Notes under the pieces: model-generated
Told to the model about the DNA's origin: nothing
Database searches by the model: none
The model's input: only the letters and a program-made list of their open reading frames with translations
Source: a virus
Lineage: Duplodnaviria; Heunggongvirae; Uroviricota; Caudoviricetes
Reading direction: 5' to 3' (one strand)
DNA: 64,000 nt
IMG/VR virus record: IMGVR_UViG_3300035698_011431
Coordinates: 1 to 64,000 of that record
In this document: positions 16,982-60,686 of the stretch, piece after piece
How positions within the stretch are numbered: position 1 is the first letter of the stretch
How the letters are laid out: each line of letters starts with the position of its first letter
Translations under genes and position numbers: made by a program

Positions 16982-17180
16982 GGAGTATTTAGCTAATCAT
17001 CCTCAAATAGAAAGAAGGTTTTGTTCGTTTATGTGGAGGTTTCTTCCAGCAGTAAGTTTATTTGCAATAGGATTCTTAACAGATTGGATTGACTCTGAAT
17101 TTAAAGAAGAGACCACAATTATGTTAGTGATCTCTTATCTATTAAATGAAGTTACAAAGTATCTTAATAAAAAGACTTAG
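16968..17180 (+). CDS. small membrane protein (lysis accessory?)
   Basis: 70 aa, one TM (FLPAVSLFAIGFL). Confidence 0.3.
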   Translation: MIKIKEYLANHPQIERRFCSFMWRFLPAVSLFAIGFLTDWIDSEFKEETTIMLVISYLLNEVTKYLNKKT

Positions 17181-17998
17181 CTTTTGATATCAATAAATGG
17201 GATTGCTCCACCTGTATATAATGGCATTACTCCATTCCATTTTTTAATTGATTCGTATTCGTTTTCAATCCTTCTCAGTTCTAGGATATCAGGGTTAGCT
17301 TGAAGAGCAGAAGCTTCTATTCTTATAGCTTCTGATTTACCTCTAGCTGCTTCTATCTTTTGATCTGATTGATATTTTACTTTCTCTAGTCTATTCTTTT
17401 CAGCTTCTGCTTCCTGAACTGCGGTTACTTTCGCTTCAATTGCTAGATCGAATTGTTCCGAGAATTGGAAGTTTACAAGTCTAACTTGTTCTACTTCGAT
17501 AAAGTCAGTTTCGATTCTTGATTTTACAGCTTCTTTAATCTCTTTATTAACTTCATCTCTTTTAGTTATCAATTCAGTTGCTGTAAATTTTGCTGTAACT
17601 GATTTTACACCTTCCTGTAATGCCGGCATAATAATTTTCCCTACATATTCTTCCTCGTCTCCAATTTTCTGATATAATTTATTTACTTTTTTAGCATCTG
17701 CCCTATAGTTTATAGCTACTGTTAGTTGAACATCTTGAAGATCAAGACTAGCCGCATCGGCAAGTTTTTCTTCTTTTTGAGTCCTTACATTCATCTTCTT
17801 AATCTTTTGTACGAAAGGAATCTTAAAGTGAACCCCTTCATCTAGAACTCTTTCTGATACTGCTCCAAATGTCATTAATACACCACGTTCCCCTGCTCTT
17901 ACTACACGCACACTTGCAAACAATAATATGATGATGGCAATAATGATTGATCCAGCCCATACTAATCGCTTGATTGTTTTTGACGATAATTCGTCCAT
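17177..17998 (-). CDS. SPFH / band-7 (stomatin/prohibitin-like) membrane protein
   Basis: 273 aa; N-terminal TM then RVVRAGERGVLMTFGAVSERVLDEGVHFKIPFVQKI, the hallmark SPFH start; C-terminal coiled-coil. Confidence 0.8.
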   Translation of the reverse strand: MDELSSKTIKRLVWAGSIIIAIIILLFASVRVVRAGERGVLMTFGAVSERVLDEGVHFKIPFVQKIKKMNVRTQKEEKLADAASLDLQDVQLTVAINYRADAKKVNKLYQKIGDEEEYVGKIIMPALQEGVKSVTAKFTATELITKRDEVNKEIKEAVKSRIETDFIEVEQVRLVNFQFSEQFDLAIEAKVTAVQEAEAEKNRLEKVKYQSDQKIEAARGKSEAIRIEASALQANPDILELRRIENEYESIKKWNGVMPLYTGGAIPFIDIKS

Positions 17999-27241: not shown

Positions 27242-27313
27242 CCATCTTAACTCAATCGGCTAGAGGGCAGACTGTAAATCTGTTATTGCTTGGTTCGATT
27301 CCAAGAGGATGGA
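27242..27313 (+). tRNA. tRNA, anticodon GTA (Tyr) with an unusually short variable loop
   Basis: Hand-folded cloverleaf. Acceptor stem CCATCTT/AGGATGG with one G-U pair. D-arm CTCA...AGAG pairs 3 of 4. Anticodon stem GCAGA/TCTGT, loop CTGTAAA. T-arm CTTGG-TTCGATT-CCAAG. No encoded CCA. Confidence 0.5.
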
Positions 27314-27882
27314 CATTATATATAGAAGAAATTAAAATCCCTATATATAAAATCTCTAATGAGGTAAAGGGGATACAGAGTTATCCACACTCAAATTAAA
27401 TCGATACATACATGAATTTAGACGAACAACTAGAAGAATATAGAAGGCTAGTAGACAAACTAGCAGAAGAAGAACCTGAAGAGGTTGAACATATAATGGA
27501 TATTTTTAATGGTATAAATCCTTTTAAGGATAAGAAAACCCGAAAACAATGATCTAGCAGCATCTATCAACTCGTGAGCTATTAGATAGGTCGCTTGGGA
27601 CTATTAGATCAATTGCTTTTGGGGAATAGGGTGTTATAATAGAAATAGCTCAACTCAAGGACTTGACTTTCACGTCAAATAGTGTATAATAAAGAAGCTA
27701 GTAGGTGTTCGATTAAATTCGAATTAAATGCCGAACCTACAATAGGATTGAAATTTGAATAGAACGGGGGTACAGTTAGAAAGCTATAAATGGATGAGCT
27801 TGATGCTAGGTTTACGTACCCTCGTACCGAGTTCAAGCAAGTCCGTTTATAGCTTTTTATATGCCTAAATTATAATAAACAA

Positions 27883-35021: not shown

Positions 35022-35199
35022 ATTAGAGTTTTATGGAGTAGTGGCGGAATAGTAGACGCATATATGAAGCGGATTCCAGTATAGTTACACTGTGGCGCAA
35101 CGGTAGCGCTTAGGGGTTTTCCCCTGCGGTTGTAGGTTCGAGTCCTACCAGTATGTAACATGCAAGGTCTTGTCCTTGCCTACTCCATTAAGCTCTAAT
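35022..35199 (+). ncRNA. tRNA-like structured element B: long terminal stem ATTAGAG..GGAGTAG / CTACTCC..CTCTAAT, A-type D-arm and T-arm modules, and a nested second cloverleaf-like insert (D-arm GCGC-AACGGTA-GCGC, T-arm GTAGG-TTCGAGT-CCTAC)
   Basis: read directly; anticodon-equivalent region of inner unit is a 4-nt-loop hairpin AGGGG-TTTT-CCCCT. Confidence 0.45.
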
Positions 35200-44821: not shown

Positions 44822-45622
44822 GATCTTTGCTACTTTCACCTCTAAAGAAAGTAGCTCTACAATAATTAAACTAAAATAATGAGGGAAATAAAGTTTCGAT
44901 GGTATTCAAAAGAATTAGGAATGAGTAAAGGTAAGCTATTAGATAAGTTTATAGATCATAATTCAGGGAACGATATATTAGATTTTGAAGAGGCAACGAT
45001 AGAAAAGCATGAGTTGAATGACTTGTCCGGTCCAATACAATACACAAATTCAGTCGATAAGAAAGGAAAAGAAATATATGAAGGAGATATTGTAAGGTTT
45101 TATGAGGGGGATCAAATTAAATGGGATAGGTTAAGAGTTCAATGGGACTGTGATAGGTGGGGTTTATTCGATGGTATTTGTAATGAGGAATCATTAGACA
45201 TTAATCAAGTACAGATTATAGGTAATATATATGAAGAATTAGAAACAAAATAATTACAATTAAACTAAATATATGTTTCAGGGGATGTTTATTTTAATGG
45301 AATTAGGATTGACAATTCTAGCAGTAAAGCAAAACCTTAAGACAAGAATGAGTTATAGATTTCGAGGATAATGTGGTATAATATATATATCAATCTGGTC
45401 GATTGGTATTTATAAATTTAACAAAAATTAGTTTTGGTTGATTTTGTACTTAGGGAGTGAACTGTTTTTGAAGATTTAATAATGTTACATCTTTTTGACC
45501 AATATTGGTGCACAATTTCTTCTAACTGAGCTATTCGTATAAGATAGGAAGGCTCTAGAGCGTCTCATCGTTCTTCAGTACCCTTTCAGCATACGGTAGG
45601 TTGGTGATAAGAAATATACTAA

Positions 45623-45668
45623 ACAGGCTAGAGTTTTTAAACTCTCGTGGGCCTGTTTTTTATTTTCA
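45623..45668 (+). terminator. intrinsic terminator (ACAGGC...GCCTGT stem, T5ATTTT)
   Basis: read directly; preceded by a GC-rich structured ~80-nt segment. Confidence 0.55.
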
Positions 45669-45863
45669 TTGTATATGTTTTATGGTATAATAGGTATTAA
45701 TAATTATTAATTATAATATTATGGAAGAAGAAAGTTCGGATGCTTATTATGGAGAAGATGATTTGGGAGATGACGAATTAGACATTGATTGGTTAGATGA
45801 AGTAGACAAAGAGAATAATAAATAAATCTTGAATAAAAAGGGATAAATATTAATTAAAAATCA

Positions 45864-46214
45864 ATGAATAATCAAAGGATAATATATCAAAGGACAATAT
45901 TAGAATATCTTAAGTATAATAATTATCTATCCAAAGTAAAGGATTGCAAATTTTGCACGCTTGGAGGGCAACAAGTACTCCATAAATATACATATTGGAC
46001 ATTAATAAGAAATAAGTTTCCTTGGAAGACATGGAAAGAACATAATATCCTTTTGTTAAATAGACACATAAAAAATATAGATATAGAGGAGTTAAAGAGA
46101 ACCGAAATACAAGAGTTCAATGAGATAAGAATAAAACATCCAGAGCATGTAGTAATGCACACAGCTCCAAAGACAATCAAAGTAGATCACTTCCATTATC
46201 ATCTTTGTAAATGA
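45864..46214 (+). CDS. HIT-family (histidine triad) protein, candidate 5'-deadenylase/nucleotide hydrolase
   Basis: C-terminal DHFHYHL fits the HxHxHxx histidine triad motif; sits at head of RNA-ligase cassette. Confidence 0.4.
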   Translation: MNNQRIIYQRTILEYLKYNNYLSKVKDCKFCTLGGQQVLHKYTYWTLIRNKFPWKTWKEHNILLLNRHIKNIDIEELKRTEIQEFNEIRIKHPEHVVMHTAPKTIKVDHFHYHLCK

Positions 46215-46404
46215 ATAAAATAGATCATCCAAAACATTATAATCAAGTACCAGAGATAGAATGTATTGATGTAGTGGAATGGTTTAATTTTAATTTAGGT
46301 AATTCTGTGAAATACATTTGGAGAGCAGAGTTTAAAGAAAATAAGGAGGAAGATCTAAAGAAAGCAATTTGGTATATTAATAGAGAATTGAATAAAAACA
46401 AGGA

Positions 46405-47448
46405 ATGAATTTAGATAAAATAAATAATTTAATAGAGGAGAAGTATGTCTCAGTGCAGAAACACCCTATTGAAGATTTATATATCTATAACTATACACAC
46501 AAGGCTCAATTCGAGGGGAAATGGGATAAGGAAATAAGGATATGTAGGGGATTAATTTTAGATGGGAATAGTGATATTATAGCTAGACCCATGGAAAAAT
46601 TTTTTAATTATGAAGAGGTCGAAGTTAGGGATATTGAAATACCTAAAACAGATTTTAAGGTTTATGAAAAGTTAGACGGCTCGTTAATAATTTTATTTTA
46701 TTATAAACATAAATGGCGAGTAGCTACGAGGGGAAGCTTTACTTCAGATCAGGCAATAAAAGCCCGGGAATTATTAATAAATTATCAGCAATATATAAAC
46801 AAATTTAATAGAAATTATACATATTCACTAGAAGTTATTTATAAATCGAATCGTATTGTATGTGATTATGGAGAAGATGAAAGGCTAGTATTATTAGCAG
46901 GAATAAATATAGAGACAGGCAAAGAAATAGATATAATGAATATAGATTATCCTGATAAGCCAGAAATATTGTCAGGAGTTAAAGATTACAAAGAGATTAA
47001 GGCAAAAGAAGAAAAGAATAAAGAAGGATTTGTAATTAGATATGAAAATGGATTCAGATTGAAGGTTAAGTTTGAAAATTACAAGCGTTTGCATTCTATG
47101 TTGACAGGGATGACAGCACGTAAGATATGGCAAGCTTTAAAAGATAAAGAAGAGGTAAGTAAATATTTGGAAAAAGTACCAGATGAGTTTTATAAGTTTT
47201 TTAAAGACAAAGTAAAAGAAATTGGGAATAATTATAAGGAGATAGAGAGTAAATCAATTGAATATTATAAAGAGAATAGGGGACTAGATCGAAAAGAATT
47301 AGCAATTAAAGTAAACAAAGAAAAGGATAAACGAATAATACCGATTGTATTTAGTCTTTTAGACAAAAAGGATTATTCGGAAACAATATGGAAGATGATA
47401 AAACCAAAACATGAAATGCCACTTAATCAAATAGAAGACAATGAGTAA
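46405..47448 (+). CDS. RNA ligase 1 (T4 RnlA/gp63-like)
   Basis: CRGLILDG...ARPMEKFFNYEE parallels T4 Rnl1 ECRGIMFE...SRPMEKFFNLNE; motif I KLDGSL. Confidence 0.7.
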   Translation: MNLDKINNLIEEKYVSVQKHPIEDLYIYNYTHKAQFEGKWDKEIRICRGLILDGNSDIIARPMEKFFNYEEVEVRDIEIPKTDFKVYEKLDGSLIILFYYKHKWRVATRGSFTSDQAIKARELLINYQQYINKFNRNYTYSLEVIYKSNRIVCDYGEDERLVLLAGINIETGKEIDIMNIDYPDKPEILSGVKDYKEIKAKEEKNKEGFVIRYENGFRLKVKFENYKRLHSMLTGMTARKIWQALKDKEEVSKYLEKVPDEFYKFFKDKVKEIGNNYKEIESKSIEYYKENRGLDRKELAIKVNKEKDKRIIPIVFSLLDKKDYSETIWKMIKPKHEMPLNQIEDNE

Positions 47449-48292
47449 AATTTACATGACCTGTGGCTTACCTGCAAGTGGGAAAAGTACATGGGCGAAA
47501 CAATATATAAAGGAGAATCCTAACACTAAAATCGTAAATAAAGATTCTTTTAGGGCAATGTTAGATAATGGAAAATGGTCAAAGGGAAATGAAAAGTTTG
47601 TTTTAGAAGTTAGGGATTTAATAATAATCGCAGCATTAAAACAAGGTAAAGATATTATAGTAGACGATACTAATTTTAATATTGTTCACTTGAAAAGAAT
47701 AGAAGAAATAGCAGAAAAGCATAATGCAGAGGTGGAAATAAAAGATAGTTTTTTGGATATTCCATTGGATGAATGTATTGAGAGAGATAAGAAAAGAGAA
47801 GGCAGTGTTGGGGAAAAAGTTATTCGAGGGATGTATGACAAATATTTAAAGGAAAAGGATTATGTAAGACAAGACAAAGAATTATCAAAGGCTGTTGTCT
47901 TTGACGTCGATGGGACTTTAACTACAGGTCCTAAAGACAGAAGTCCCTATGAATGGAGTAAGGTTGGACAAGACGAACTATGTCAAGAAGTATATAATGC
48001 GTATAAGCTATACAAAGAAGCTGGATATAAAATAATAATCTTTACAGGACGTGATGGGTGTTGTGAAAAGGAGACAAAGGAATGGTTAAAAAAATATAAT
48101 ATAGAGTATGATTATTTTGATATTAGACCATTGGGAAACGCCGAAAACGATGCTATAATAAAGGAAAGGATGGTAAAGGAAATCTTAGATAAATATTACA
48201 TAGAAGTGGTTTTCGATGACAGAAATCGTGTTTGTAAAAAATGGCGTCAGCTAGGATTCAAATGTTATCAAGTGGCGTGTGGGGATTTTTAA
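47441..48292 (+). CDS. polynucleotide 5'-kinase / 3'-phosphatase (T4 PseT-like)
   Basis: P-loop GLPASGKST at N-terminus; HAD phosphatase motif VVFDVDGTLT in C-terminal half. Confidence 0.85.
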   Translation: MSKIYMTCGLPASGKSTWAKQYIKENPNTKIVNKDSFRAMLDNGKWSKGNEKFVLEVRDLIIIAALKQGKDIIVDDTNFNIVHLKRIEEIAEKHNAEVEIKDSFLDIPLDECIERDKKREGSVGEKVIRGMYDKYLKEKDYVRQDKELSKAVVFDVDGTLTTGPKDRSPYEWSKVGQDELCQEVYNAYKLYKEAGYKIIIFTGRDGCCEKETKEWLKKYNIEYDYFDIRPLGNAENDAIIKERMVKEILDKYYIEVVFDDRNRVCKKWRQLGFKCYQVACGDF

Positions 48293-48302
48293 GAATATTT
48301 AA

Positions 48303-49430
48303 ATGACTATGAAAAGAAAATTAGCTAGTATACAAATAATCGAGTCTTTGGAAGAAATCCCTAATGCAGATAGGATTGAAGTTGCAACTGTTTTGGGATG
48401 GCATTTAGTAGTAAAGAAAGGACAGTTCGAGGTTGGGGATAAATGTGTATATTTTGAAACTGATTCTCTCCTTCCGATAAAAAAAGAGTTTGAGTTTTTG
48501 GCAAAAGATGGGACAAAGAAAATAATTGGAGATGATAATAAAGAATATGAAGGATATCGGCTGAAAACTATAAAGTTGAGAAAACAAATATCTAGTGGCT
48601 TGGCATTATCGCTAAATGAATTAAAGGTAAAGGGGAGCGAAGGGGATGATCTAACAAAAGAGTTAGGGATAATAAAATATGAAGCATTGTCTATTGGAAC
48701 AAATGTTTCAAGTAAAAGACCGGTAGTTTTTCCAAAGTGGATTCCAAAAGGGATAGGGGTTTTTATTAAAAGACATTTTCCTAAGACTGCACGAAAATTG
48801 TGGGGAAAGTCTTTGAGAAGTTTTCCTTCTTATATAGAGAAAACAGATGAAATAAGAATACAAGGTTCTCCTAAGATATTAGAACGACATAAGGATAAAA
48901 AGTTTTATGTAACAGAGAAATTGGATGGTTCTAGTGTTACGATATTTAGGGAAAAGGATAAAACTCAAGTTTGTAGTAGAAAGGTATGGCTTCCAAGGGA
49001 AGACGGCAATCAGTTTTGGGATGCGGTAACTAAGATTGAGGATAAGTTAAATGATTTGGAAGATATAGCATTACAGGGGGAATTAGTAGGGGTAGGGATT
49101 CAAAAGAACCCATTAAAAATGAAGGATAGAAAGATATATTTCTTTAATGCGTATGATTATCAAAAAGGAGAATATCTTAATTTCAAAGAATTCCAGGGAC
49201 TAATAACTAGGCTTGGATTAGAAACTGTTCCTATAATAGAAACAAGTTATAGGCTTCCAGAAACAATTGATGAAATGGTAGAGTATAGTACAAGGAAATC
49301 GACAATAGCAAAAGAAGAGTGGGCAGAAGGATTAGTATTTAGATCTTTAGAAGAAACTCAAGATCAAAGGATTGGTAGGTTAAGTTTTAAATGTATAAAC
49401 CCTAGCTTTCTTCTAGCACATGGGGATTAA
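48303..49430 (+). CDS. second ATP-dependent polynucleotide ligase (KxDG nucleotidyltransferase; RNA ligase candidate) with N-terminal OB-like domain
   Basis: motif I TEKLDGSSV, downstream ligase-like motifs; family assignment uncertain. Confidence 0.5.
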   Translation: MTMKRKLASIQIIESLEEIPNADRIEVATVLGWHLVVKKGQFEVGDKCVYFETDSLLPIKKEFEFLAKDGTKKIIGDDNKEYEGYRLKTIKLRKQISSGLALSLNELKVKGSEGDDLTKELGIIKYEALSIGTNVSSKRPVVFPKWIPKGIGVFIKRHFPKTARKLWGKSLRSFPSYIEKTDEIRIQGSPKILERHKDKKFYVTEKLDGSSVTIFREKDKTQVCSRKVWLPREDGNQFWDAVTKIEDKLNDLEDIALQGELVGVGIQKNPLKMKDRKIYFFNAYDYQKGEYLNFKEFQGLITRLGLETVPIIETSYRLPETIDEMVEYSTRKSTIAKEEWAEGLVFRSLEETQDQRIGRLSFKCINPSFLLAHGD

Positions 49431-49572
49431 AAATTTTAGGATACAAGGGAAATATAGAAGCAGGGATGTATTTTGACAATCCTATGAATAACGTTGTATG
49501 ATTAGTTCATACAAACCTTACGTAAACCCTCTAAATAATTGCTCAGTTTACTCGTAAGGTTTCTGGGCGTTT

Positions 49573-50255: not shown

Positions 50256-50771
50256 ATGGAAATAAAAAACATACCAATAGAAGAAATCAATGTAATAGGA
50301 GATAATCCTAGAGAGTTATCAGATGAAAGATTTGAAGCTCTAAAAAAGTATGCCAAGAAATATGGTTTGCTTACTCCATTAGTAGTAGACAAGAGAAGCA
50401 ATAGTTTAATCGGAGGACATTCAAGATTATTAGCTATTAAAGAGCTAGGATGGAAAGAAGTACCTTGTAATATGGTAGAGCCAAAAGACGATTCAGAAAG
50501 GAAAGAAATGCAGTTAATAGACAATGAACAGTTTGGACATTGGATAGAAGATGAGTTGGTAGTTTTCGTTAAAGACACTGGAATAATACTAGAAGACTAC
50601 GAAATACAAACAGATAGTATTAGTTTAGATGAAATAGTTAATGGGGAGGACGTAGATATAGATGATTTCTTCAGGGAGAAAACAGACGAAGAGAAAGAAA
50701 AGGAAAGGGAGGAAGAACAAGAAAAAAAAGAAATTAAATGTCCCAAATGTGGATTTTTATTTGAAAGATGA
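50256..50771 (+). CDS. ParB/Srx-fold nuclease-domain protein with C-terminal Zn-ribbon (DpdB-like partner of DpdA?)
   Basis: IGDNPRELSDERFEALKKYAKKYGLLTPLVVDKRSNSLIGGHSRLLAIKELG fits ParB N-terminal domain; CPKCG at end. Confidence 0.6.
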   Translation: MEIKNIPIEEINVIGDNPRELSDERFEALKKYAKKYGLLTPLVVDKRSNSLIGGHSRLLAIKELGWKEVPCNMVEPKDDSERKEMQLIDNEQFGHWIEDELVVFVKDTGIILEDYEIQTDSISLDEIVNGEDVDIDDFFREKTDEEKEKEREEEQEKKEIKCPKCGFLFER

Positions 50772-51676
50772 AAATATTTTTAGCAAATACTTATTCGTCT
50801 TGGAGGGGGGATATATTAGAGAATTATATGAAAATTTATTTAGCGGGGACACTTACAGGGAATAATAGTTATATTTACCGAGATATGAATGTACATTTAG
50901 TTGATTTAAAAAGAATAAAAAAAGACATGGAAATTTTTATAGCGAGAGGGAATTGCGGGTGGATGACTGGGAAAGAGATAAAATTCAATGATTTTCTCGA
51001 TATATATATACTTGAGAGTTTTTTCTATTTAGATGATTGGATGAAGGTCTTAATAAAAAAGAAGGTGTTTAAAAGGTTTTTATTGGATAGCGGAGCATTT
51101 ACGTTCATGACAGGGGTTGGTGGGGAAGTAAACTGGGAGGAATATGTTGATAAATATGCAAAATTCATAAAAGAATATGATGTAGAATTATTCTTTGAAC
51201 TAGACATTGATTCAGTTGTAGGGTTGAAGAAGGTTGAAGAGCTCCGAGGAAGGTTGGAAGAGAAATCGGGAAAAAGGTGTATCCCTGTTTGGCATAAATC
51301 AAGAGGGAAGGAGTACTTTATAAAAATGTGCGAAGAATATAATTATGTAGCAATAGGGGGGATAGTTACTAAGGAAATAACAGGGAGAGAACATAAGCAT
51401 TTCCCCTGGCTAATAGATATAGCTCATCAAAATAATGCTAAGATTCATGGATTAGGATATACAAACTTAAAAGGATTAAAGAAGTATCATTTCGATTCGG
51501 TAGATTCAACTGCATGGATATATGGGAACAGGGGAGGGTATTTATATAAATTTACAGGCAACACTTTAAAGCAAATACAGTCACCGGAGGGGCTTAGATT
51601 AAAAGGGAGAGAAGCGGCTATACATAATTTTCAAGAATGGATAAAATTTCAAAAATACGCAGATAAAAATTTATAA
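50768..51676 (+). CDS. dpdA: tRNA-guanine-transglycosylase-like protein, DpdA-type DNA 7-deazaguanine transglycosylase (putative)
   Basis: LLDSGAFTF resembles the catalytic TDSGGFQ of TGT; placed between ParB-like and queDEC-folE. Confidence 0.55.
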   Translation: MKIFLANTYSSWRGDILENYMKIYLAGTLTGNNSYIYRDMNVHLVDLKRIKKDMEIFIARGNCGWMTGKEIKFNDFLDIYILESFFYLDDWMKVLIKKKVFKRFLLDSGAFTFMTGVGGEVNWEEYVDKYAKFIKEYDVELFFELDIDSVVGLKKVEELRGRLEEKSGKRCIPVWHKSRGKEYFIKMCEEYNYVAIGGIVTKEITGREHKHFPWLIDIAHQNNAKIHGLGYTNLKGLKKYHFDSVDSTAWIYGNRGGYLYKFTGNTLKQIQSPEGLRLKGREAAIHNFQEWIKFQKYADKNL

Positions 51677-51681
51677 AAACT

Positions 51682-52026
51682 ATGTATAAACTAAAATACG
51701 AAACACAATTCGCAGCAGCTCACCAATTAAAGACAGCTTATTCAAAGGAATGTAATGACTTTTTACATGGGCATAATTGGGAAGTAATTGCTGAAATAGA
51801 GACTAAAGAGCTTGTTAATGATATGGTAATAGACTTTAAAAAATTAAAAGAAATTATTCATAAGTTAGATCATAAAAACTTAGTAGATATATTACCATTT
51901 CAAACAACAGCAGAAAACATAGCAAAGTATCTACATAACGAAATAAAAAAAGAAGTTAAACAAGAGTCTAAGGTTACAATTAAATTATGGGAGGCAGAAA
52001 AGTCTTGCATAGAATATTATGTTTAA
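51682..52026 (+). CDS. queD: 6-carboxy-5,6,7,8-tetrahydropterin synthase
   Basis: 114 aa; CNDFLHGHNWEV (Cys-x3-HGH) signature. Confidence 0.8.
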   Translation: MYKLKYETQFAAAHQLKTAYSKECNDFLHGHNWEVIAEIETKELVNDMVIDFKKLKEIIHKLDHKNLVDILPFQTTAENIAKYLHNEIKKEVKQESKVTIKLWEAEKSCIEYYV

Positions 52027-52921
52027 AGAAGGAAAGGATAATATTAACTATAAAGACGGCAAAACAAAGATGTTAAAGGATAAATTGGAAAACATTGACA
52101 ATTGCCTATTATGTGGGTCTGAGTTCTACTTACTTGTTCATCATCTTGATGGGAATCATGGTAATAACGTAGATGAAAACTTAAAAGTTATGTGTCATCA
52201 GTGTCATGATGTGATTCATCAAAAAGGTTTAAATTTTCACAACAAAAAATGGAAGATAAAAACAAGCGAGGATTTTTTGTCTATACAAGGAGAAGGGGTA
52301 ACGTGTGGGACACCTTCTCTTTTTATTAGGTTATTTGGGTGTACAACAAATTGCCCTTGGTGTGATACGAATTATTCTAAGGGTGATAATGCGTATAAAG
52401 AATACAATTATAAAGAGATAGCGAATTTAATCATTTGTTATGCCAAAAAGAGTTCTATAAGAAATTTAGTAATAACAGGGGGAGAGCCTTTGGAACAATC
52501 TGTCCAGCCTTTGATTATGATAGCGAAACTCTTAGGGTATAGGATAGAGATAGAAACTAACGGCAAGCCAATAGCAGATGGGAATAAATTCATATTACCC
52601 TCTTTTGTTGACCAGTTTAATATTTCACCTAAGTTATGGAGTAAAGAAAAAGTAAGGACATTTAGAAAAGATAGGATAAAAAAATTAATGCAAGTAAATT
52701 CTATTTTTAAATTTGTAGTAAAAACAAGCGAGGATTTTAGGATAGTAGAAGAAATGATAAAGAGAGGGGTTGATAAAGAGAGGGTATGGCTTATGCCACT
52801 AACGGGAGATAAGGATGAAAAAAAGACAATGGGGGTTGTTTGGGATTATTGTGTAAAAAATAAACTTAAGTTTTCGGCTCGGATACATTATTTATTATTC
52901 GGTAACAAAAGAAACATATGA
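52019..52921 (+). CDS. queE: 7-carboxy-7-deazaguanine synthase (radical SAM) with an N-terminal Cys/His-rich HNH-like extension
   Basis: FGCTTNCPWCDT radical-SAM cluster motif; extra N-terminal LCGSE...HHLDGNHGNN...CHQCHDVIH segment. Confidence 0.7.
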   Translation: MFKEGKDNINYKDGKTKMLKDKLENIDNCLLCGSEFYLLVHHLDGNHGNNVDENLKVMCHQCHDVIHQKGLNFHNKKWKIKTSEDFLSIQGEGVTCGTPSLFIRLFGCTTNCPWCDTNYSKGDNAYKEYNYKEIANLIICYAKKSSIRNLVITGGEPLEQSVQPLIMIAKLLGYRIEIETNGKPIADGNKFILPSFVDQFNISPKLWSKEKVRTFRKDRIKKLMQVNSIFKFVVKTSEDFRIVEEMIKRGVDKERVWLMPLTGDKDEKKTMGVVWDYCVKNKLKFSARIHYLLFGNKRNI

Positions 52922-53571
52922 AAACAATTGTAGTATTAAGCGGAGGATTAGATTCAACAACAGTATTATATAATCTTCTAGATAGAAAACATGAAGTAAA
53001 GGCTATATCTTTTGATTATGGGCAAAGACATAAAAAGGAATTAGATTATGCTAAACAGACAACGGATAAATTGGGGATAGAACATGAGGTCATTGATATG
53101 GCTTTTATGAAGAAATATATAAGCAATTCGGCTTTAACAGGTGATATAGAAGTACCAGAAGGGCATTACGAGGATGAGAACATGAAACAAACAGTAGTAC
53201 CGAATAGAAACATGATAATGGCGAGTATAGCGATAGGTTATGCAGTTAATATTGATTATGATGGAGTAGCGTTGGGAGTTCATTTAGGAGATCATGAAGT
53301 TTATCCAGACTGTAGGCCAGAATTTATTTATGCGTTAAAGGTTATTGCTTTAGTATCCAATTACAAAAAGATAAGGATTATAACTCCATATTTATATGTA
53401 TGTAAAGATGGGATAGTAAAAGACGGAATTAGATTAAAGGCAGATTATTCAAAGACATGGACATGTTATAAAGGAGGTGATCTTGCTTGTGGTAAATGTG
53501 GATCATGTCAAGAGAGGCTAGAAGCGTTTAATGATAATAATATTAAAGATCCAATCGAATATGACAAATGA
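52918..53571 (+). CDS. queC: 7-cyano-7-deazaguanine (preQ0) synthase
   Basis: PP-loop [11 protein letters not shown]; C-terminal zinc motif [11 protein letters not shown]. Confidence 0.85.
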
Positions 53572-54403
53572 AATAAAATGGTTAAAGGAAAAGATAGGTA
53601 AGAAAAAGGTTTACGGAATACCTAAAGGAGGATTGATTGTAGCTGGGTTAGCAGGTTTAAACATAGTAGAGACTCCAGAAGAGGCGGAGATAATAGTTGA
53701 TGATTTAATTGATAGTGGGGAAACAATAAAAAAGTATATAGGGAAGAAGGAGATTTATGTATTATATGTAAAACCACATTCCCCTTATAGGGATAAGATA
53801 AATTACTTTAAGGAGGAAGAAGGATGGGTAGAATTTTGGTGGGAGGATAAAGAAAAAGATCAGAAGGATTTAGTTATAAGGGAATTAGAATACATAGGGG
53901 AGAATCCAAAGAGAGAGGGGTTATTAGATACTCCAAATAGGGTAATCAAATCGTGGAATAAATTGTATGAAGGATATAAAACAAATCCAGATGATATTTT
54001 AACGGTCTTTACTAATGAATCAAAGATAGATCAAATAGTGGGATTATCAAACATAGAATTTTATTCAACATGTGAACATCACTTATTGCCGTTTTTTGGG
54101 AAAGCTCATATTTATTACATTCCAAATAAAAAAGGAAAGATTGTAGGAATAAGTAAACTTGCGAGAATAGTTGACATATATGCTAGACGGTTACAGAATC
54201 AAGAAAGGTTGTCAAAACAAATAGCAGATCTAATTGAAGAGAAGTTAGAACCAAAGGGAACGGCGGTAATATTAGAAGCTCAACATTTTTGCATGAAAGC
54301 TCGAGGAGTAGAGAAGGAAAATGCTATAATGAAAACATCTGATTTGAGGGGAGCATTTAGAAAAAATGAAAAGGCTCGCATGGAATTATTCCAATTAATA
54401 TAA
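53561..54403 (+). CDS. folE: GTP cyclohydrolase I (FolE), with ~100-aa N-terminal extension carrying a PRTase-like [10 protein letters not shown] motif
   Basis: [10 protein letters not shown]...[20 protein letters not shown]...RRLQNQERL are FolE hallmarks; alternative upstream start at 53531 in ORF track. Confidence 0.8.
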
Positions 54404-57265: not shown

Positions 57266-57393
57266 AAAAGGGTTGCAATATAACAGTTACTTCAAATTTT
57301 TTGTCGTTGGTTCAATTCCAACCTTTGACTTCGGTCAAGGTAGCTCAGTGGTAGAGCAAAAATCAAGACTCTGTTATAAATTTTTACCCTTTT
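57266..57393 (+). ncRNA. circularly permuted tRNA-like RNA (YrlA-type Y RNA candidate)
   Basis: Module order: T-arm GTTGG-TTCAATT-CCAAC, acceptor-like hairpin CTTTGAC-TTCG-GTCAAGG, then TA, then D-arm GCTC-AGTGGTA-GAGC. The flanks pair: AAAAT/ATTTT, CTGTT/AACAG and AAAAGGG/CCCTTTT. It lies 50 nt upstream of the TROVE protein gene. Confidence 0.5.
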
Positions 57394-57441: not shown

Positions 57442-58845
57442 ATGAGTAAATTTAATGAAAAGACAAAAGGATCAATGAAAATCGTAAATAAGGCTGGTGG
57501 TAGTGCATATAGTCATACTGCTGAGATGGAATTGGTAGTTAGTGTTCTAACTACTTTTTTAAATAACAAGTTTTATGAAAGTGGAGATGAAAGGACTGAG
57601 AGGATAAAAGGGTTAATCCAAAAAGTTGATCCAGAATTTGTAGCAAAATTGGCTATAGTTGCAAGGAAAGAATTTCACTTAAGGAGTGTTTCACATTTAT
57701 TAGTAGGTGAATTATCAAAGAGACAAGAAGCTTCTCCATATATAAGGAAGGCCATTTTAAGTATTACTCAAAGACCGGATGACTTAACTGAATTGGTTGG
57801 ATATCTTGACGGGAAACTCTCAAAGCAAGTTAAAAGAGGGGTAAGAAGGTCTTTATATAAATTCAATAGATATCAATTAGCAAAATATAAGCAAGAAGGA
57901 AGGAAGGTGAAGTTGGTTGATTTGTTTAACTTAGTACATCCTAAACCTGAATTTGCAACTGAGGAACAAAAGAGAGCGTGGAAGGATTTAATTAAGGGGG
58001 ACTTGAAGAGTACGGAAACATGGGAGAGTCAAATGTCTAGTGGTAAGGATAAAAAAGAGGTGTGGAAAGATTTGATAATGGAAGAGAAGTTGGGATATAT
58101 GGCATTATTAAGGAATCTAAGGAACATAGATCAATGGGCTTCAAGTGAAGTTAAAAAGAAAGCATGCGAGATGATTTCAAATAGAGAGATAGTTAAAAAA
58201 TCAAAACAATTACCATTTAGATTTTATTCGGCATATCAGAATGTAGAGAATCAGGATATGTTAGAAGCTATTAATCAAGCATTAGAATATTCAACAGATA
58301 ATATCCCTAAGTTTGAAGGAAAAACATTAATAGCAGTTGATGGGAGTGGTTCAATGATGGGAGATCCAATTGAAAAATCAAGTGTTTTAGCTAGTGCATT
58401 AATTAAATCAAATGATGCTGATGTTGTTTTATATGATGAAAGGATTAGAGAATTCAAATACTTAAGGAGTGAGCCAGCATTAACAATGTCTCAAAGGATA
58501 CAAAACGAATGTATTGGAGGTGGAACTAATACTAGTCAGGTATTTGAATATGCAAATCAAAAAGAAAAAAAATATGATAGAATTATTATCTTGTCGGATA
58601 AAGAAAGTTGGCAGGATTCGGATAGCTTATGGAGAGTAAAGGGAACACAAACAACCTATAATGCGTATCGAAAAATAAATGATTGTTTTGTTTATGCGAT
58701 TGATATTGAAGGATATGGAACAAAAGACATTACAAGCCCCAAGGTATTCCATTTAGCGGGATTCTCGGATAGAATTTTTGATTTCATAAAATGGATAGAA
58801 AAGGAAAATCAAATTGTTGATTATATAAACAAGATCGAACTATAA
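57442..58845 (+). CDS. rsr: Ro60/Rsr-like protein (TROVE domain + vWA domain with MIDAS)
   Basis: The N-terminus NKAGGSAYSHTAEMELVVSVLTTFLNNKFYESGDERTE parallels the Ro60 TROVE start. The C-terminal vWA domain has the MIDAS motif LIAVDGSGSM. Confidence 0.6.
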   Translation: MSKFNEKTKGSMKIVNKAGGSAYSHTAEMELVVSVLTTFLNNKFYESGDERTERIKGLIQKVDPEFVAKLAIVARKEFHLRSVSHLLVGELSKRQEASPYIRKAILSITQRPDDLTELVGYLDGKLSKQVKRGVRRSLYKFNRYQLAKYKQEGRKVKLVDLFNLVHPKPEFATEEQKRAWKDLIKGDLKSTETWESQMSSGKDKKEVWKDLIMEEKLGYMALLRNLRNIDQWASSEVKKKACEMISNREIVKKSKQLPFRFYSAYQNVENQDMLEAINQALEYSTDNIPKFEGKTLIAVDGSGSMMGDPIEKSSVLASALIKSNDADVVLYDERIREFKYLRSEPALTMSQRIQNECIGGGTNTSQVFEYANQKEKKYDRIIILSDKESWQDSDSLWRVKGTQTTYNAYRKINDCFVYAIDIEGYGTKDITSPKVFHLAGFSDRIFDFIKWIEKENQIVDYINKIEL

Positions 58846-59675: not shown

Positions 59676-60686
59676 ATGATAATAGCCATCGTAATATTAC
59701 TGATTTCCTTTTATTTATTAGCAAAGATTTGTGATAATTATTTTGTTGATTCATTAGAGAAGATAGCCGACAAATTAAAGTTATCTTCAGATGCAGCAGG
59801 GGCAACTTTGATGGCAATCGGATCAAGTGCACCGGAATTGTTTATATCTATAATTGCATTACTAAAAGGGGGAGGGCATGAGATTATTGGGATAAGCACT
59901 ATAATAGGATCATCTTTATTTAATTTGTTAGTAATTATAGGGATTGTAGCTTTTGTTAAGAAGGCAAAGTTAGTGAAACAACCAGTTATTAGAGACATGA
60001 TCTTTTATGCGTTGGGAGTTATTGTGTTAATAGCAGTAATTATAAATGGATCTATAGGGCTTGTGGAGGCATTAGTATTACTAGCGTTATATCTTGTATA
60101 TGTATATTCAGTTGTTAAATGGCGTAAGTGGTTTCCTTATCAAGACAACGGGAAAGGGGAAGAAGAAGAAAAGATAGGAATGACAGGGATGAATAAAGTT
60201 TTAAGTCATGTTTTTCCAAATAAAAAGAGATATGTACTGACATTTATATTATCTATATTATGGATTGCTTTATTAAGTTGGGGATTAGTTGAAAGTGCTA
60301 TAATGATTGCATATAGATTAAACATTTCCGAGATGATTGTAGCTTTAATTATAGTAGCTATTGGAACATCTATTCCGGACATGATGGGATCTATAATTGC
60401 AGCAAAGAGAGGGAATGTGGATATGGCAGTGAGTAACGCAATAGGCTCAAATGTCTTTGATATATTCTTTGGGTTAGGATTACCATATACAATATGCCTT
60501 ATGTTGGGAGGGAAGATAGCTGTAGATAGTAATAACATCTTAATGGTAGCAATCTATTTAATAGGGACTATAATTATTACGTTATGTCTGTTAAAATTCA
60601 GGAAATGGGTATTAGATAAGAAGACGGGGATAATCATGATAGGATTATATGTAATTTGTTTAATATTATTATTAATTAATCAATAA
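59676..60686 (+). CDS. Ca2+/cation antiporter (CaCA, YrbG-like Na+/Ca2+ exchanger)
   Basis: two alpha-repeats GSSAPELFISIIA and GTSIPDMMGSIIAAKRG; ~10 TM segments. Confidence 0.75.
   Translation: MIIAIVILLISFYLLAKICDNYFVDSLEKIADKLKLSSDAAGATLMAIGSSAPELFISIIALLKGGGHEIIGISTIIGSSLFNLLVIIGIVAFVKKAKLVKQPVIRDMIFYALGVIVLIAVIINGSIGLVEALVLLALYLVYVYSVVKWRKWFPYQDNGKGEEEEKIGMTGMNKVLSHVFPNKKRYVLTFILSILWIALLSWGLVESAIMIAYRLNISEMIVALIIVAIGTSIPDMMGSIIAAKRGNVDMAVSNAIGSNVFDIFFGLGLPYTICLMLGGKIAVDSNNILMVAIYLIGTIIITLCLLKFRKWVLDKKTGIIMIGLYVICLILLLINQ

Follow-up and report, generated by a model that had tools for sequence, protein, structure and literature searches.

The 64,000-nucleotide (nt) stretch of DNA analyzed here, hereafter called the window, comprises positions 1 to 64,000 of the IMG/VR record IMGVR_UViG_3300035698_011431 and derives from an uncultured tailed phage (Caudoviricetes). 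On its + strand, ORF calling and translation revealed that the region from 45864 to 49430 carries five open reading frames (ORFs) coding for proteins of 116, 65, 347, 283, and 375 amino acids (aa). These genes probably constitute a translationally coupled operon, whose core would carry out classical phage heal-and-seal RNA repair according to the paradigm established by phage T4. An initial annotation of this DNA had described a cassette of four consecutive genes for a histidine triad (HIT) protein, an Rnl1-like ligase, a T4-type kinase/phosphatase, and a second ligase. All four ORFs were recovered with the boundaries proposed for them, but there are five genes in the cassette, with a DUF3310 gene (46211-46408) positioned between those for the HIT protein and the Rnl1-type ligase. 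The features of the locus are as follows.

About 45621-45666, just upstream of the operon promoter: hairpin and T-run terminator (fold of 45380-45670 and sequence)
45663..45691, + strand: sigma-70-like promoter with an extended -10 element (TTTTCA-17-TG-TATAAT; promoter scan, 10/12 match with TG), the likely start of the operon transcript
45721..45825, + strand: acidic 34-aa ORF (MEEESSDAYYGEDDLGDDELDIDWLDEVDKENNK), the first ORF past the promoter (translation)
45864..46214, + strand: predicted HIT-superfamily hydrolase, 116 aa, of a divergent Hint-like family (family profile, PDB profile match, AlphaFold2 and Foldseek)
46211..46408, + strand: DUF3310 small protein, 65 aa (PF11753, 3e-15)
46405..47448, + strand: predicted Rnl1-family ATP-dependent RNA ligase, 347 aa (PF09511, phrog_562, T4 Rnl1 2c5u)
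47441..48292, + strand: predicted bifunctional polynucleotide 5'-kinase/3'-phosphatase of the T4 Pnkp type, 283 aa (PF13671, PF25109, phrog_505, 1ltq)
48303..49430, + strand: predicted Rnl5-family nick-sealing RNA ligase, 375 aa (PF21189, PF09414, phrog_968, NgrRnl 5cot)
49473..49502, + strand: strong promoter-like site (TTGACA-18-TATGAT, 11/12; promoter scan), within the 142-nt gap that follows the Rnl5 gene

The junctions between these genes are tight. An ATGA sequence overlaps the stop codon of the HIT gene with the start codon of the DUF3310 gene, and a second ATGA overlaps the DUF3310 stop with the Rnl1 start. The Rnl1 and Pnkp genes overlap by 8 nt, and a gap of only 10 nt separates Pnkp from Rnl5. 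Because the genes overlap or nearly abut, and because a promoter is found both before and after them, they can be read as a single operon of ~3.8 kb. The next transcription unit probably begins at the promoter-like site at 49473-49502, which would hence mark the end of the cassette.

Predicted enzymes for healing and sealing RNA

The motifs quoted in the initial annotation for the HIT protein, the Rnl1-like ligase, Pnkp, and the second ligase were all found at the expected places in the translations, and the profile searches bear out the families that had been proposed for the three repair enzymes. The 283-aa protein is predicted to be a full-length, bifunctional Pnkp of the T4 type. Its kinase domain (PF13671, E = 6.7e-19) carries the P-loop GLPASGKS at residues 9-16 and the segment N33-K-D35-S-F-R38, and its phosphatase domain (PF25109 HAD_PNKP, E = 1.4e-38, residues 150-283) carries the DxDxT motif of HAD enzymes as D155-V-D-G-T159. 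The protein matches phrog_505 (E = 4.7e-86) and aligns end to end with T4 Pnkp (1ltq, E = 4.8e-34; query residues 1-283 versus 1-301), colinear from residue 1. Among solved structures, its best match is the bacterial Pnkp1 (4xrp, E = 6.9e-43).

The 347-aa protein appears to be an Rnl1-family RNA ligase with its catalytic residues present. It matches PF09511 (E = 1.3e-17; 64.8 bits, where the cutoff is 28.3), and the Rnl2/Rnl5-type model PF09414 stays below threshold. The match to phrog_562 (E = 1.7e-68) extends over residues 7-336; this profile bears the annotation of the T4 gp63 type, "RNA ligase and tail fiber protein attachment catalyst." In the alignment with the structure of T4 Rnl1 (2c5u, E = 4e-14), the nucleophile K89, as well as E143, E207-G208, and K220/K222, align with T4 residues K99, E159, E227-G228, and K240/K242. 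Characteristic segments include CRG (47-49), RPMEKFFN (61-68), and KLDG (89-92). The N-terminal subdomain is present (R48, K65, F67), and its RPMEKFFN segment is identical to that of T4. The N-subdomain residues Arg54, Lys75, and Phe77 of the T4 enzyme contact the gamma-phosphate and adenine of ATP (PMC6379707). The physiological function of T4 Rnl1 is tRNA repair, for which its C domain confers specificity for the anticodon loop (PMC6379707).

The 375-aa protein is predicted to belong to the Rnl5 family of RNA ligases, and it likewise carries the catalytic residues. This family, which occurs in bacterial viruses, is defined by an OB domain at the N terminus that is joined to a C-terminal adenylyltransferase domain (PMC5397189). 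The window protein has the same architecture, with an N-terminal OB domain (PF21189, E = 2.6e-31, residues 7-103 of a domain that spans about 5-136) and a C-terminal nucleotidyltransferase domain (PF09414, E = 4.6e-26, residues 200-364, above cutoff). It matches phrog_968 (E = 6.2e-74) and aligns with the Naegleria enzyme NgrRnl (5cot, E = 6.9e-46) in two colinear stretches (NgrRnl residues 5-132 and 127-339). The nucleophile motif K206LDGSS (KLDG, 206-209) and motifs III, IV, and V (QGE260, E342GLVF, and FK363) correspond to KLDGSS, QGE, EGLVF, and FK of NgrRnl, and R185 is present as well. Two differences from the family as represented by NgrRnl are evident. The two domains are separated by about 30 extra residues, which is typical of the phage clade phrog_968, and the gene shares an operon with Pnkp and Rnl1, a context that is rare among viral Rnl5 loci.

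We also considered whether the gene at 48303-49430 might code for a DNA ligase, and rejected this assignment. The DNA ligase model PF01068 reached only 22.9 bits, below its cutoff of 26.2, with only 79 residues covered. A DNA ligase in the PDB was matched with E = 0.005, compared to 7e-46 for NgrRnl, and the OB domain is N-terminal rather than C-terminal.

The in vitro specificity of Rnl5 enzymes is that of T4 Rnl2, namely the sealing of nicks with an RNA 3'-OH strand (PMC5397189). For DraRnl, the Rnl5 enzyme of Deinococcus, RNA is required only on the 3'-OH side, and DNA is accepted in the other strands (PMC5397189). For Rnl5 enzymes, the sole reported physiological role is DNA repair, in that a DraRnl knockout delays genome reassembly after irradiation, and the physiological role of Rnl5 ligases has been described as uncharted (PMC5397189).

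A divergent HIT protein

When used as a single sequence, the 116-aa protein encoded by the first gene of the operon had no match in Pfam, PHROG, or the PDB. A word-indexed search recovered only the protein itself and one 62%-identical protein (P0002), and tblastn searches of GenBank phages with the protein and with the family consensus gave no match. An exhaustive HMMER search revealed 101 related proteins of about 110-140 aa. In an alignment of 60 sequences from this family, the elements CxFC, NxFPYD, HxxLxPKRH, and HxHxH are each kept in at least 90% of members. The window protein carries CKFC at residues 28-31 (a CxxC pair), H60, H68, and the triad H109-F-H111-Y-H113 (HFHYHLC, 109-115).

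A profile of the family matches solved HIT proteins over its full length, beginning with 3r6f (E = 1.6e-7) and followed by Hint, Fhit, GalT, and Ap4A phosphorylase. Among the individual members, 19 of 60 reach PF01230, and 16 of 60 reach PF11969 (DcpS_C), which means that the assignment to a branch inside the HIT superfamily is not sharp. The AlphaFold2 model of the ORF improved from a predicted local distance difference test (pLDDT) score of 39, obtained with a two-sequence alignment, to 93.3 with the 60-sequence family alignment. Foldseek searches with this model returned HIT and Hint structures with a probability of 1.0 and template modeling (TM) scores of about 0.5-0.6, which are this low partly because the model has an extra N-terminal helix. 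The top matches were 5uvm, 4egu, ecHinT, and hHINT1, and hinT bound to AMPylated GlnA (8v1y) was also found. The fold prediction in the initial annotation is therefore upheld: the profile and the model place the ORF in the HIT fold as a predicted member of a divergent family of Hint-like proteins about 115 aa in length, with its catalytic residues present. The protein is most likely a hydrolase of nucleoside 5'-monophosphate (NMP) adducts (NMP-X) that acts through a covalent His111-NMP intermediate.

A comparison with aprataxin, which the initial annotation had raised, turned out less favorably. In aprataxin, the HIT domain is followed by a C-terminal zinc-finger DNA-binding module. The window protein ends at residue 116, just three residues past its triad, and carries neither a zinc finger nor any other appended domain. 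Its sole cysteine pair is the N-terminal CxxC, which is common in HIT proteins of the Hint/GalT type. Moreover, aprataxin is absent from the 45 PDB profile matches (E up to 1) and from the top 50 Foldseek matches, and membership in the aprataxin family was rejected. What the window protein would share with aprataxin/Hnt3 is the HIT fold, the HxHxH triad, the expected His-NMP chemistry, and the logic of acting beside classical ligases. Specific similarity and the zinc-finger/DNA-binding extension are missing, and the relationship is one of analogy rather than membership.

The closest homolog, P0002 (L001 804-1145, 62% identity), reads H-L-A-Y-H at the position of the triad, where Ala replaces the middle histidine. 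The middle histidine of the triad is the catalytic His of aprataxin (PMC4499129). P0002 may be catalytically dead or may use another mechanism.

Gene neighborhoods of related loci

Genomic context was compared from two starting points, the ligases (with Pnkp) and the HIT family. Four Pnkp relatives with 68%, 58%, 54%, and 47% identity (L073, L074, L075, and L008, respectively) have an Rnl1 gene directly upstream of the Pnkp gene, as does Arthrobacter phage Anansi. These five loci hold no HIT gene and no adjacent Rnl5 gene. The Rnl1 and Pnkp genes are also close together in the Streptomyces phages Yaboi and Evy. This recurrent pairing indicates that Rnl1-Pnkp is a conserved, inherited module. 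In the actinobacteriophage pairs (Anansi genes 65-64, Yaboi, and Evy), a ligase with 35% identity to the window protein and a kinase are adjacent or nearly so, with the gene order and strand seen in the window. Unlike the window operon, these pairs come without Rnl5, and Evy alone adds an upstream HIT gene, which is non-orthologous.

Among 80 IMG/VR loci with an Rnl5 gene, Rnl1 lies within 5 kb in 10 and Pnkp or a phosphatase in three. At one IMG/VR locus (L204 5001-7656), an Rnl1-type ligase, DUF3310, and an Rnl5-like ligase are encoded in a row, which provides a second case of a DUF3310 gene inside an RNA ligase cluster. Rnl5 thus appears to join ligase clusters recurrently.

Searches for HIT-family loci were run with sub-alignments of the 60-sequence family alignment. 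The contigs of the closest HIT relatives are mostly shorter than 7 kb and provide little neighborhood information. The contig that encodes P0002 (L001) carries the HIT gene, a 77-aa ORF, and DUF3310, and then ends. The locus of another relative, P0003, holds no ligase and has a metallophosphoesterase gene two genes downstream. A sub-branch of the family is represented by 49 metagenomic loci on large, cellular-looking contigs (GyrA and similar genes), and in none of the 49 was Rnl1, Pnkp, Rnl5, or DUF3310 found within 6 kb.

Six HIT loci were found in IMG/VR. In one (L019 8001-8999), the HIT gene is followed by a gene for a stand-alone, Pnkp-type HAD phosphatase (PF25109, E = 5e-47). In a second (L018 7974-8704), it is followed by a gene for a 113-aa DxDxT protein, and in a third (L021 7953-9164), a Fic/DOC domain protein is encoded two genes downstream. 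These three viral contigs are syntenic, and the cargo past the small HIT gene varies among them.

Cultured phages offer one close parallel. In Streptomyces phage Evy (L156, MK977711, 100459-104298), HIT gene 183 lies ~0.8 kb upstream of RNA ligase gene 187 and polynucleotide kinase gene 190, in a region rich in tRNA/tmRNA genes, and the order HIT-ligase-kinase is the same as in the window. The Evy HIT protein is a canonical, Hint-like protein of 153 aa that is not orthologous to the 116-aa family, and the Evy genes are spaced by small ORFs and tRNA genes, whereas those of the window are translationally coupled. The HIT profile used to scan ligase loci does recognize canonical HIT proteins, as the Evy protein scores 35 bits. 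Yaboi has the ligase and the kinase, and a HIT gene was not detectable there. The annotated HIT genes of phages Richie, Pupper, and Frankenweenie, three of the four cultured phages examined, have no ligase nearby. Together, these neighborhoods suggest that Rnl5, the HIT hydrolase, and DUF3310 are additions in the lineage of the window phage, and that HIT proteins are only rarely and sporadically associated with RNA repair; the window, Evy, and L019 make up all three suggestive cases.

The upstream noncoding element and the phage genome

A noncoding element with the pattern ACTGAG..ATTCGTAT...GGAAGGC...GTACCCTT...TACGGT...TTGGT is located upstream of the operon (window 45517-45666, + strand) and ends in the terminator hairpin. 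A second copy is found at about 565-700 of L001. The order element-terminator-promoter-acidic ORF-HIT is common to the window and L001, and the acidic 34-aa ORF has a counterpart of the same position and character there (blastn: window 45706-45786 versus L001 710-781). RNAalifold analysis of the two copies of the element yielded 38 pairs, 7 of which have compensatory changes, and a fold z-score of -4.1. An Rfam search of the 610-nt spacer upstream of the operon returned noise only, and an exact-pattern scan of IMG/VR revealed no additional copy. The element is a possible small RNA of about 100-275 nt, whose transcription could start from TGgTATAAT at about 45374-45382.

On the other side of the operon, an inverted repeat (AACCTTACG...CGTAAGGTT) with a T-rich run behind it lies downstream of the post-Rnl5 promoter-like site (window 49503-49572, + strand). 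This could serve as a short leader to the next ORF, or form a small RNA ahead of it.

The phage itself has about 33% GC and a siphovirus-like gene set, with an HK97-type capsid protein and a tape-measure protein. DnaB and a large terminase are also encoded. No DNA-level relative of the window was found among GenBank phages, and an exact look-up of the Rnl5 protein returned no record. Because the structural genes and the terminase fit within 64 kb, the genome is apparently of ordinary size, rather than that of a jumbo phage. Other RNA-related features of the window are as follows.

57280-57380, + strand: YrlA-like (bacterial Y RNA) RNA (42.8 bits, E = 1.7e-7; below the Rfam gathering score of 69)
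57442-58845, + strand: Ro60/TROVE and vWA protein (PF05731, 2.8e-28; phrog_850, 2.2e-45)
35086-35156 and 27242-27314, + strand: two tRNAs (Rfam and ARAGORN)

The Ro60/Y RNA context cited in the initial annotation is therefore borne out, with the YrlA-like RNA directly upstream of the Ro60/TROVE gene and the pair located 8 kb downstream of the repair operon. One of the tRNAs is a tRNA-Tyr(GTA), and the other is tRNA-like without a normal ARAGORN anticodon ("tt," tRNA-???). The Ro60 protein, the Y-like RNA, and the tRNA genes are in keeping with an investment of this genome in the control of RNA damage.

Directly downstream of the repair operon (window 50256-54403, + strand) lie a ParB-N-like gene and then a 7-deazaguanine DNA-modification set. 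The latter comprises a DpdA/TGT-like protein (phrog_887, 2e-51), QueD, a QueE-like protein, QueC, and GTP cyclohydrolase I (FolE), and the QueE-like gene codes for a radical-SAM protein with an N-terminal Cys/His-rich extension. Two further genes are unusual cargo for a phage: one for a Na+/Ca2+ exchanger family membrane protein (59676-60686, + strand; PF01699, 1.8e-57) and one for an SPFH/Band-7 protein (17177-17998, - strand; PF01145, 8.8e-34). Band-7 proteins have been linked to RNA repair systems of the RtcB/Ro60 type.

A proposed pathway and its alternatives

Given the enzymes encoded, the core of the operon would probably function as follows. A host ribotoxin, for example an anticodon nuclease, would cut tRNA or another RNA to leave 2',3'-cyclic-phosphate and 5'-OH ends. 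The phosphatase domain of Pnkp (DxDxT, D155) would strip the 3' phosphate, and its kinase domain (P-loop, K15) would phosphorylate the 5'-OH. The Rnl1-type ligase (K89) would then adenylylate the 5'-phosphate and seal single-stranded loop breaks, such as those in the anticodon loop. The Rnl5-type ligase (K206, N-terminal OB domain) would play the part of T4 Rnl2 by sealing duplex nicks with 3'-OH and 5'-PO4 ends in which the 3'-OH strand is RNA. We infer the substrates and the host nuclease in this scheme, as well as any role for the HIT or DUF3310 protein.

Several observations weigh against this interpretation. In motif Ia, Lys119 of T4 Rnl1 is replaced by Arg109 in the alignment with the window ligase. 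About 125 residues follow motif V in this protein, and the T4_Rnl1_C model PF20819 matches only weakly (E = 0.033; 14.9 bits, where the cutoff is 27). Since the only role reported for an Rnl5 enzyme is DNA repair after irradiation, the target of the window Rnl5 may not be RNA damage. The HIT ORF is present in none of the seven other Rnl1-Pnkp loci examined, none of the 80 IMG/VR Rnl5 loci, and none of 80 IMG/VR Rnl1 loci. Finally, scans of genome contigs with the HIT pair and with Pnkp, which were aimed at the host, gave no match.

The heal-and-seal interpretation leaves room for different views of the first two genes. One is that HIT and DUF3310 are passengers, that is, co-transcribed early genes whose products act on small nucleotides or AMPylated proteins in nucleotide-pool housekeeping or anti-defense and have no role in RNA repair, in which case the functional module would consist of Rnl1, Pnkp, and Rnl5 only. 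We give this view about an even chance. It is consistent with the closest folds of the HIT protein, which are Hint-type small-molecule or protein-AMP hydrolases, and with the heterogeneous neighborhoods of the HIT family, where a generic HAD hydrolase adjoins 7 of 53 members, a Fic AMPylase domain is encoded close by in L021, and a metallophosphoesterase close by in L002-L005. The order HIT-then-DUF3310 is kept in the nearest relative with no ligase visible, though that contig ends there, and DUF3310 is a very common small phage protein that is annotated solely via fusions to nucleotide kinases. Two points speak against passengers: The tight ATGA coupling extends into Rnl1, and the neighborhoods of the HIT genes in Evy and L019 point to enzymes that act on RNA ends.

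A second view makes the HIT protein an integral proofreader. It would act as an aprataxin-like deadenylase on adenylylated RNA (AppRNA) from abortive Rnl1 or Rnl5 ligation, or as a remover of NMP caps, and would thereby recycle dead-end products. Because the HIT protein is co-translated with two ligases that transfer AMP, it is a reasonable guess, and a guess only, that its substrate is an adenylylated RNA end, or some other adduct of AMP. The coupling to these ligases, via DUF3310, is matched by a His triad that is intact at the nucleophile position H111, with at least 90% conservation in the family. Aprataxin, itself a HIT enzyme, deadenylates AppDNA through a His-AMP intermediate (PMC4499129). 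In addition, there are two independent echoes of the arrangement, namely the Evy HIT gene upstream of a ligase and a kinase, and the L019 HIT-family gene followed by that for a Pnkp-type phosphatase. However, the window protein lacks a zinc finger and any other module for binding nucleic acids, its best matches are Hint, Fhit, and GalT rather than aprataxin, and its closest homolog has Ala at the nucleophile position. The linkage of HIT to ligases is also not conserved, as the absences counted above extend to the 49 cellular loci and to three of the four cultured-phage HIT genes. For this reason, the removal of 5'-AMP suggested in the initial annotation remains only an idea. We consider the proofreader unlikely and rank a passenger or small-molecule hydrolase, which has a roughly equal chance of being right or wrong, above an AppRNA deadenylase.

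In the broadest version of the proofreading idea, the HIT protein would be a minimal de-adenylylase or de-capping enzyme for polynucleotides, free of additional domains, that phages have recruited more than once (window, Evy, and the IMG/VR contig). This is a long shot in our view. If it were true, the HIT protein would add a third, "proofreading" step to heal-and-seal repair by rescuing AppRNA or stripping NMP caps, and it would represent a viral functional analog of aprataxin with an evolutionary origin in the Hint branch.

It is similarly improbable that the cassette, or at least Pnkp and Rnl5, serves transactions of DNA or RNA-DNA hybrids rather than RNA counter-defense, by healing DNA breaks with 3'-P and 5'-OH ends and sealing RNA-primed or ribonucleotide nicks during replication or repair of a deazaguanine-modified phage genome. 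T4-type Pnkp acts on DNA ends too, and the cassette lies directly upstream of the ParB-like gene and the DpdA/QueC/QueD/QueE/FolE cluster. The substrate tolerance of DraRnl and the delayed genome reassembly in its knockout likewise favor a role with DNA (PMC5397189). Two facts stand against this: in all relatives, Pnkp has Rnl1, an enzyme known for tRNA repair, as its conserved partner, and the same genome also encodes Ro60, a Y-like RNA, and tRNAs.

Relationship to known RNA repair systems

In T4, Pnkp (pseT) and Rnl1 (gp63), with Rnl2 (gp24.1) as a second ligase, repair tRNA and thereby counter the host anticodon nuclease PrrC. The window phage shares with T4 the two core enzyme families, their catalytic motifs and full-length colinearity, and the presence of a second, nick-sealing RNA ligase in the genome. 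It differs in that its genes are arranged in one overlapping operon, that the second ligase belongs to Rnl5 instead of Rnl2, that HIT and DUF3310 are co-encoded, and that the phage has a siphovirus-like gene set, about 33% GC, and no DNA-level relative among GenBank phages. The initial annotation had regarded two ligases plus a HIT deadenylase as a departure from the standard T4 set. As far as the ligases are concerned, this point does not hold, as T4 itself has two RNA ligases, and the specificity of Rnl5 corresponds to that of Rnl2 (PMC5397189). Two ligases alone were therefore rejected as an unusual trait for a phage.

Larger repertoires have also been published. Jumbo phages combine several RNA ligases, PNK-HAD proteins, tRNA genes, and TROVE proteins (Iyer et al. 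2021, PMC7824862). With these repertoires, and with bacterial Rsr-Y RNA-RtcB operons, the window shares multiple ligases, a PNK-HAD protein, tRNA genes, and a TROVE protein that is paired with a tRNA-like RNA. In contrast to those systems, both window ligases (Rnl1 and Rnl5) are ATP dependent, no RtcB was seen, and Ro60 is encoded outside of the operon.

The family of each enzyme, Rnl1-Pnkp pairs, phages with multiple ligases, and phage TROVE proteins were thus already known. What is new is the compact, five-gene operon that includes Rnl5 and a divergent HIT protein, in a phage lineage without a cultured relative. No evidence of new chemistry was found in the cassette, and HIT proofreading is unlikely to be a general rule.

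RNA repair by phages is a known form of counter-defense against host ribotoxins, and the cassette is chiefly another example of this strategy. An activity of the HIT protein on adenylylated RNA ends, if real, would make it the first proofreader of the aprataxin type from a virus or prokaryote. Independent of the role of the HIT protein, the presence of Rnl1, Pnkp, and Rnl5 in a single operon offers a clean genetic setting for studying the role of Rnl5 ligases in viruses.

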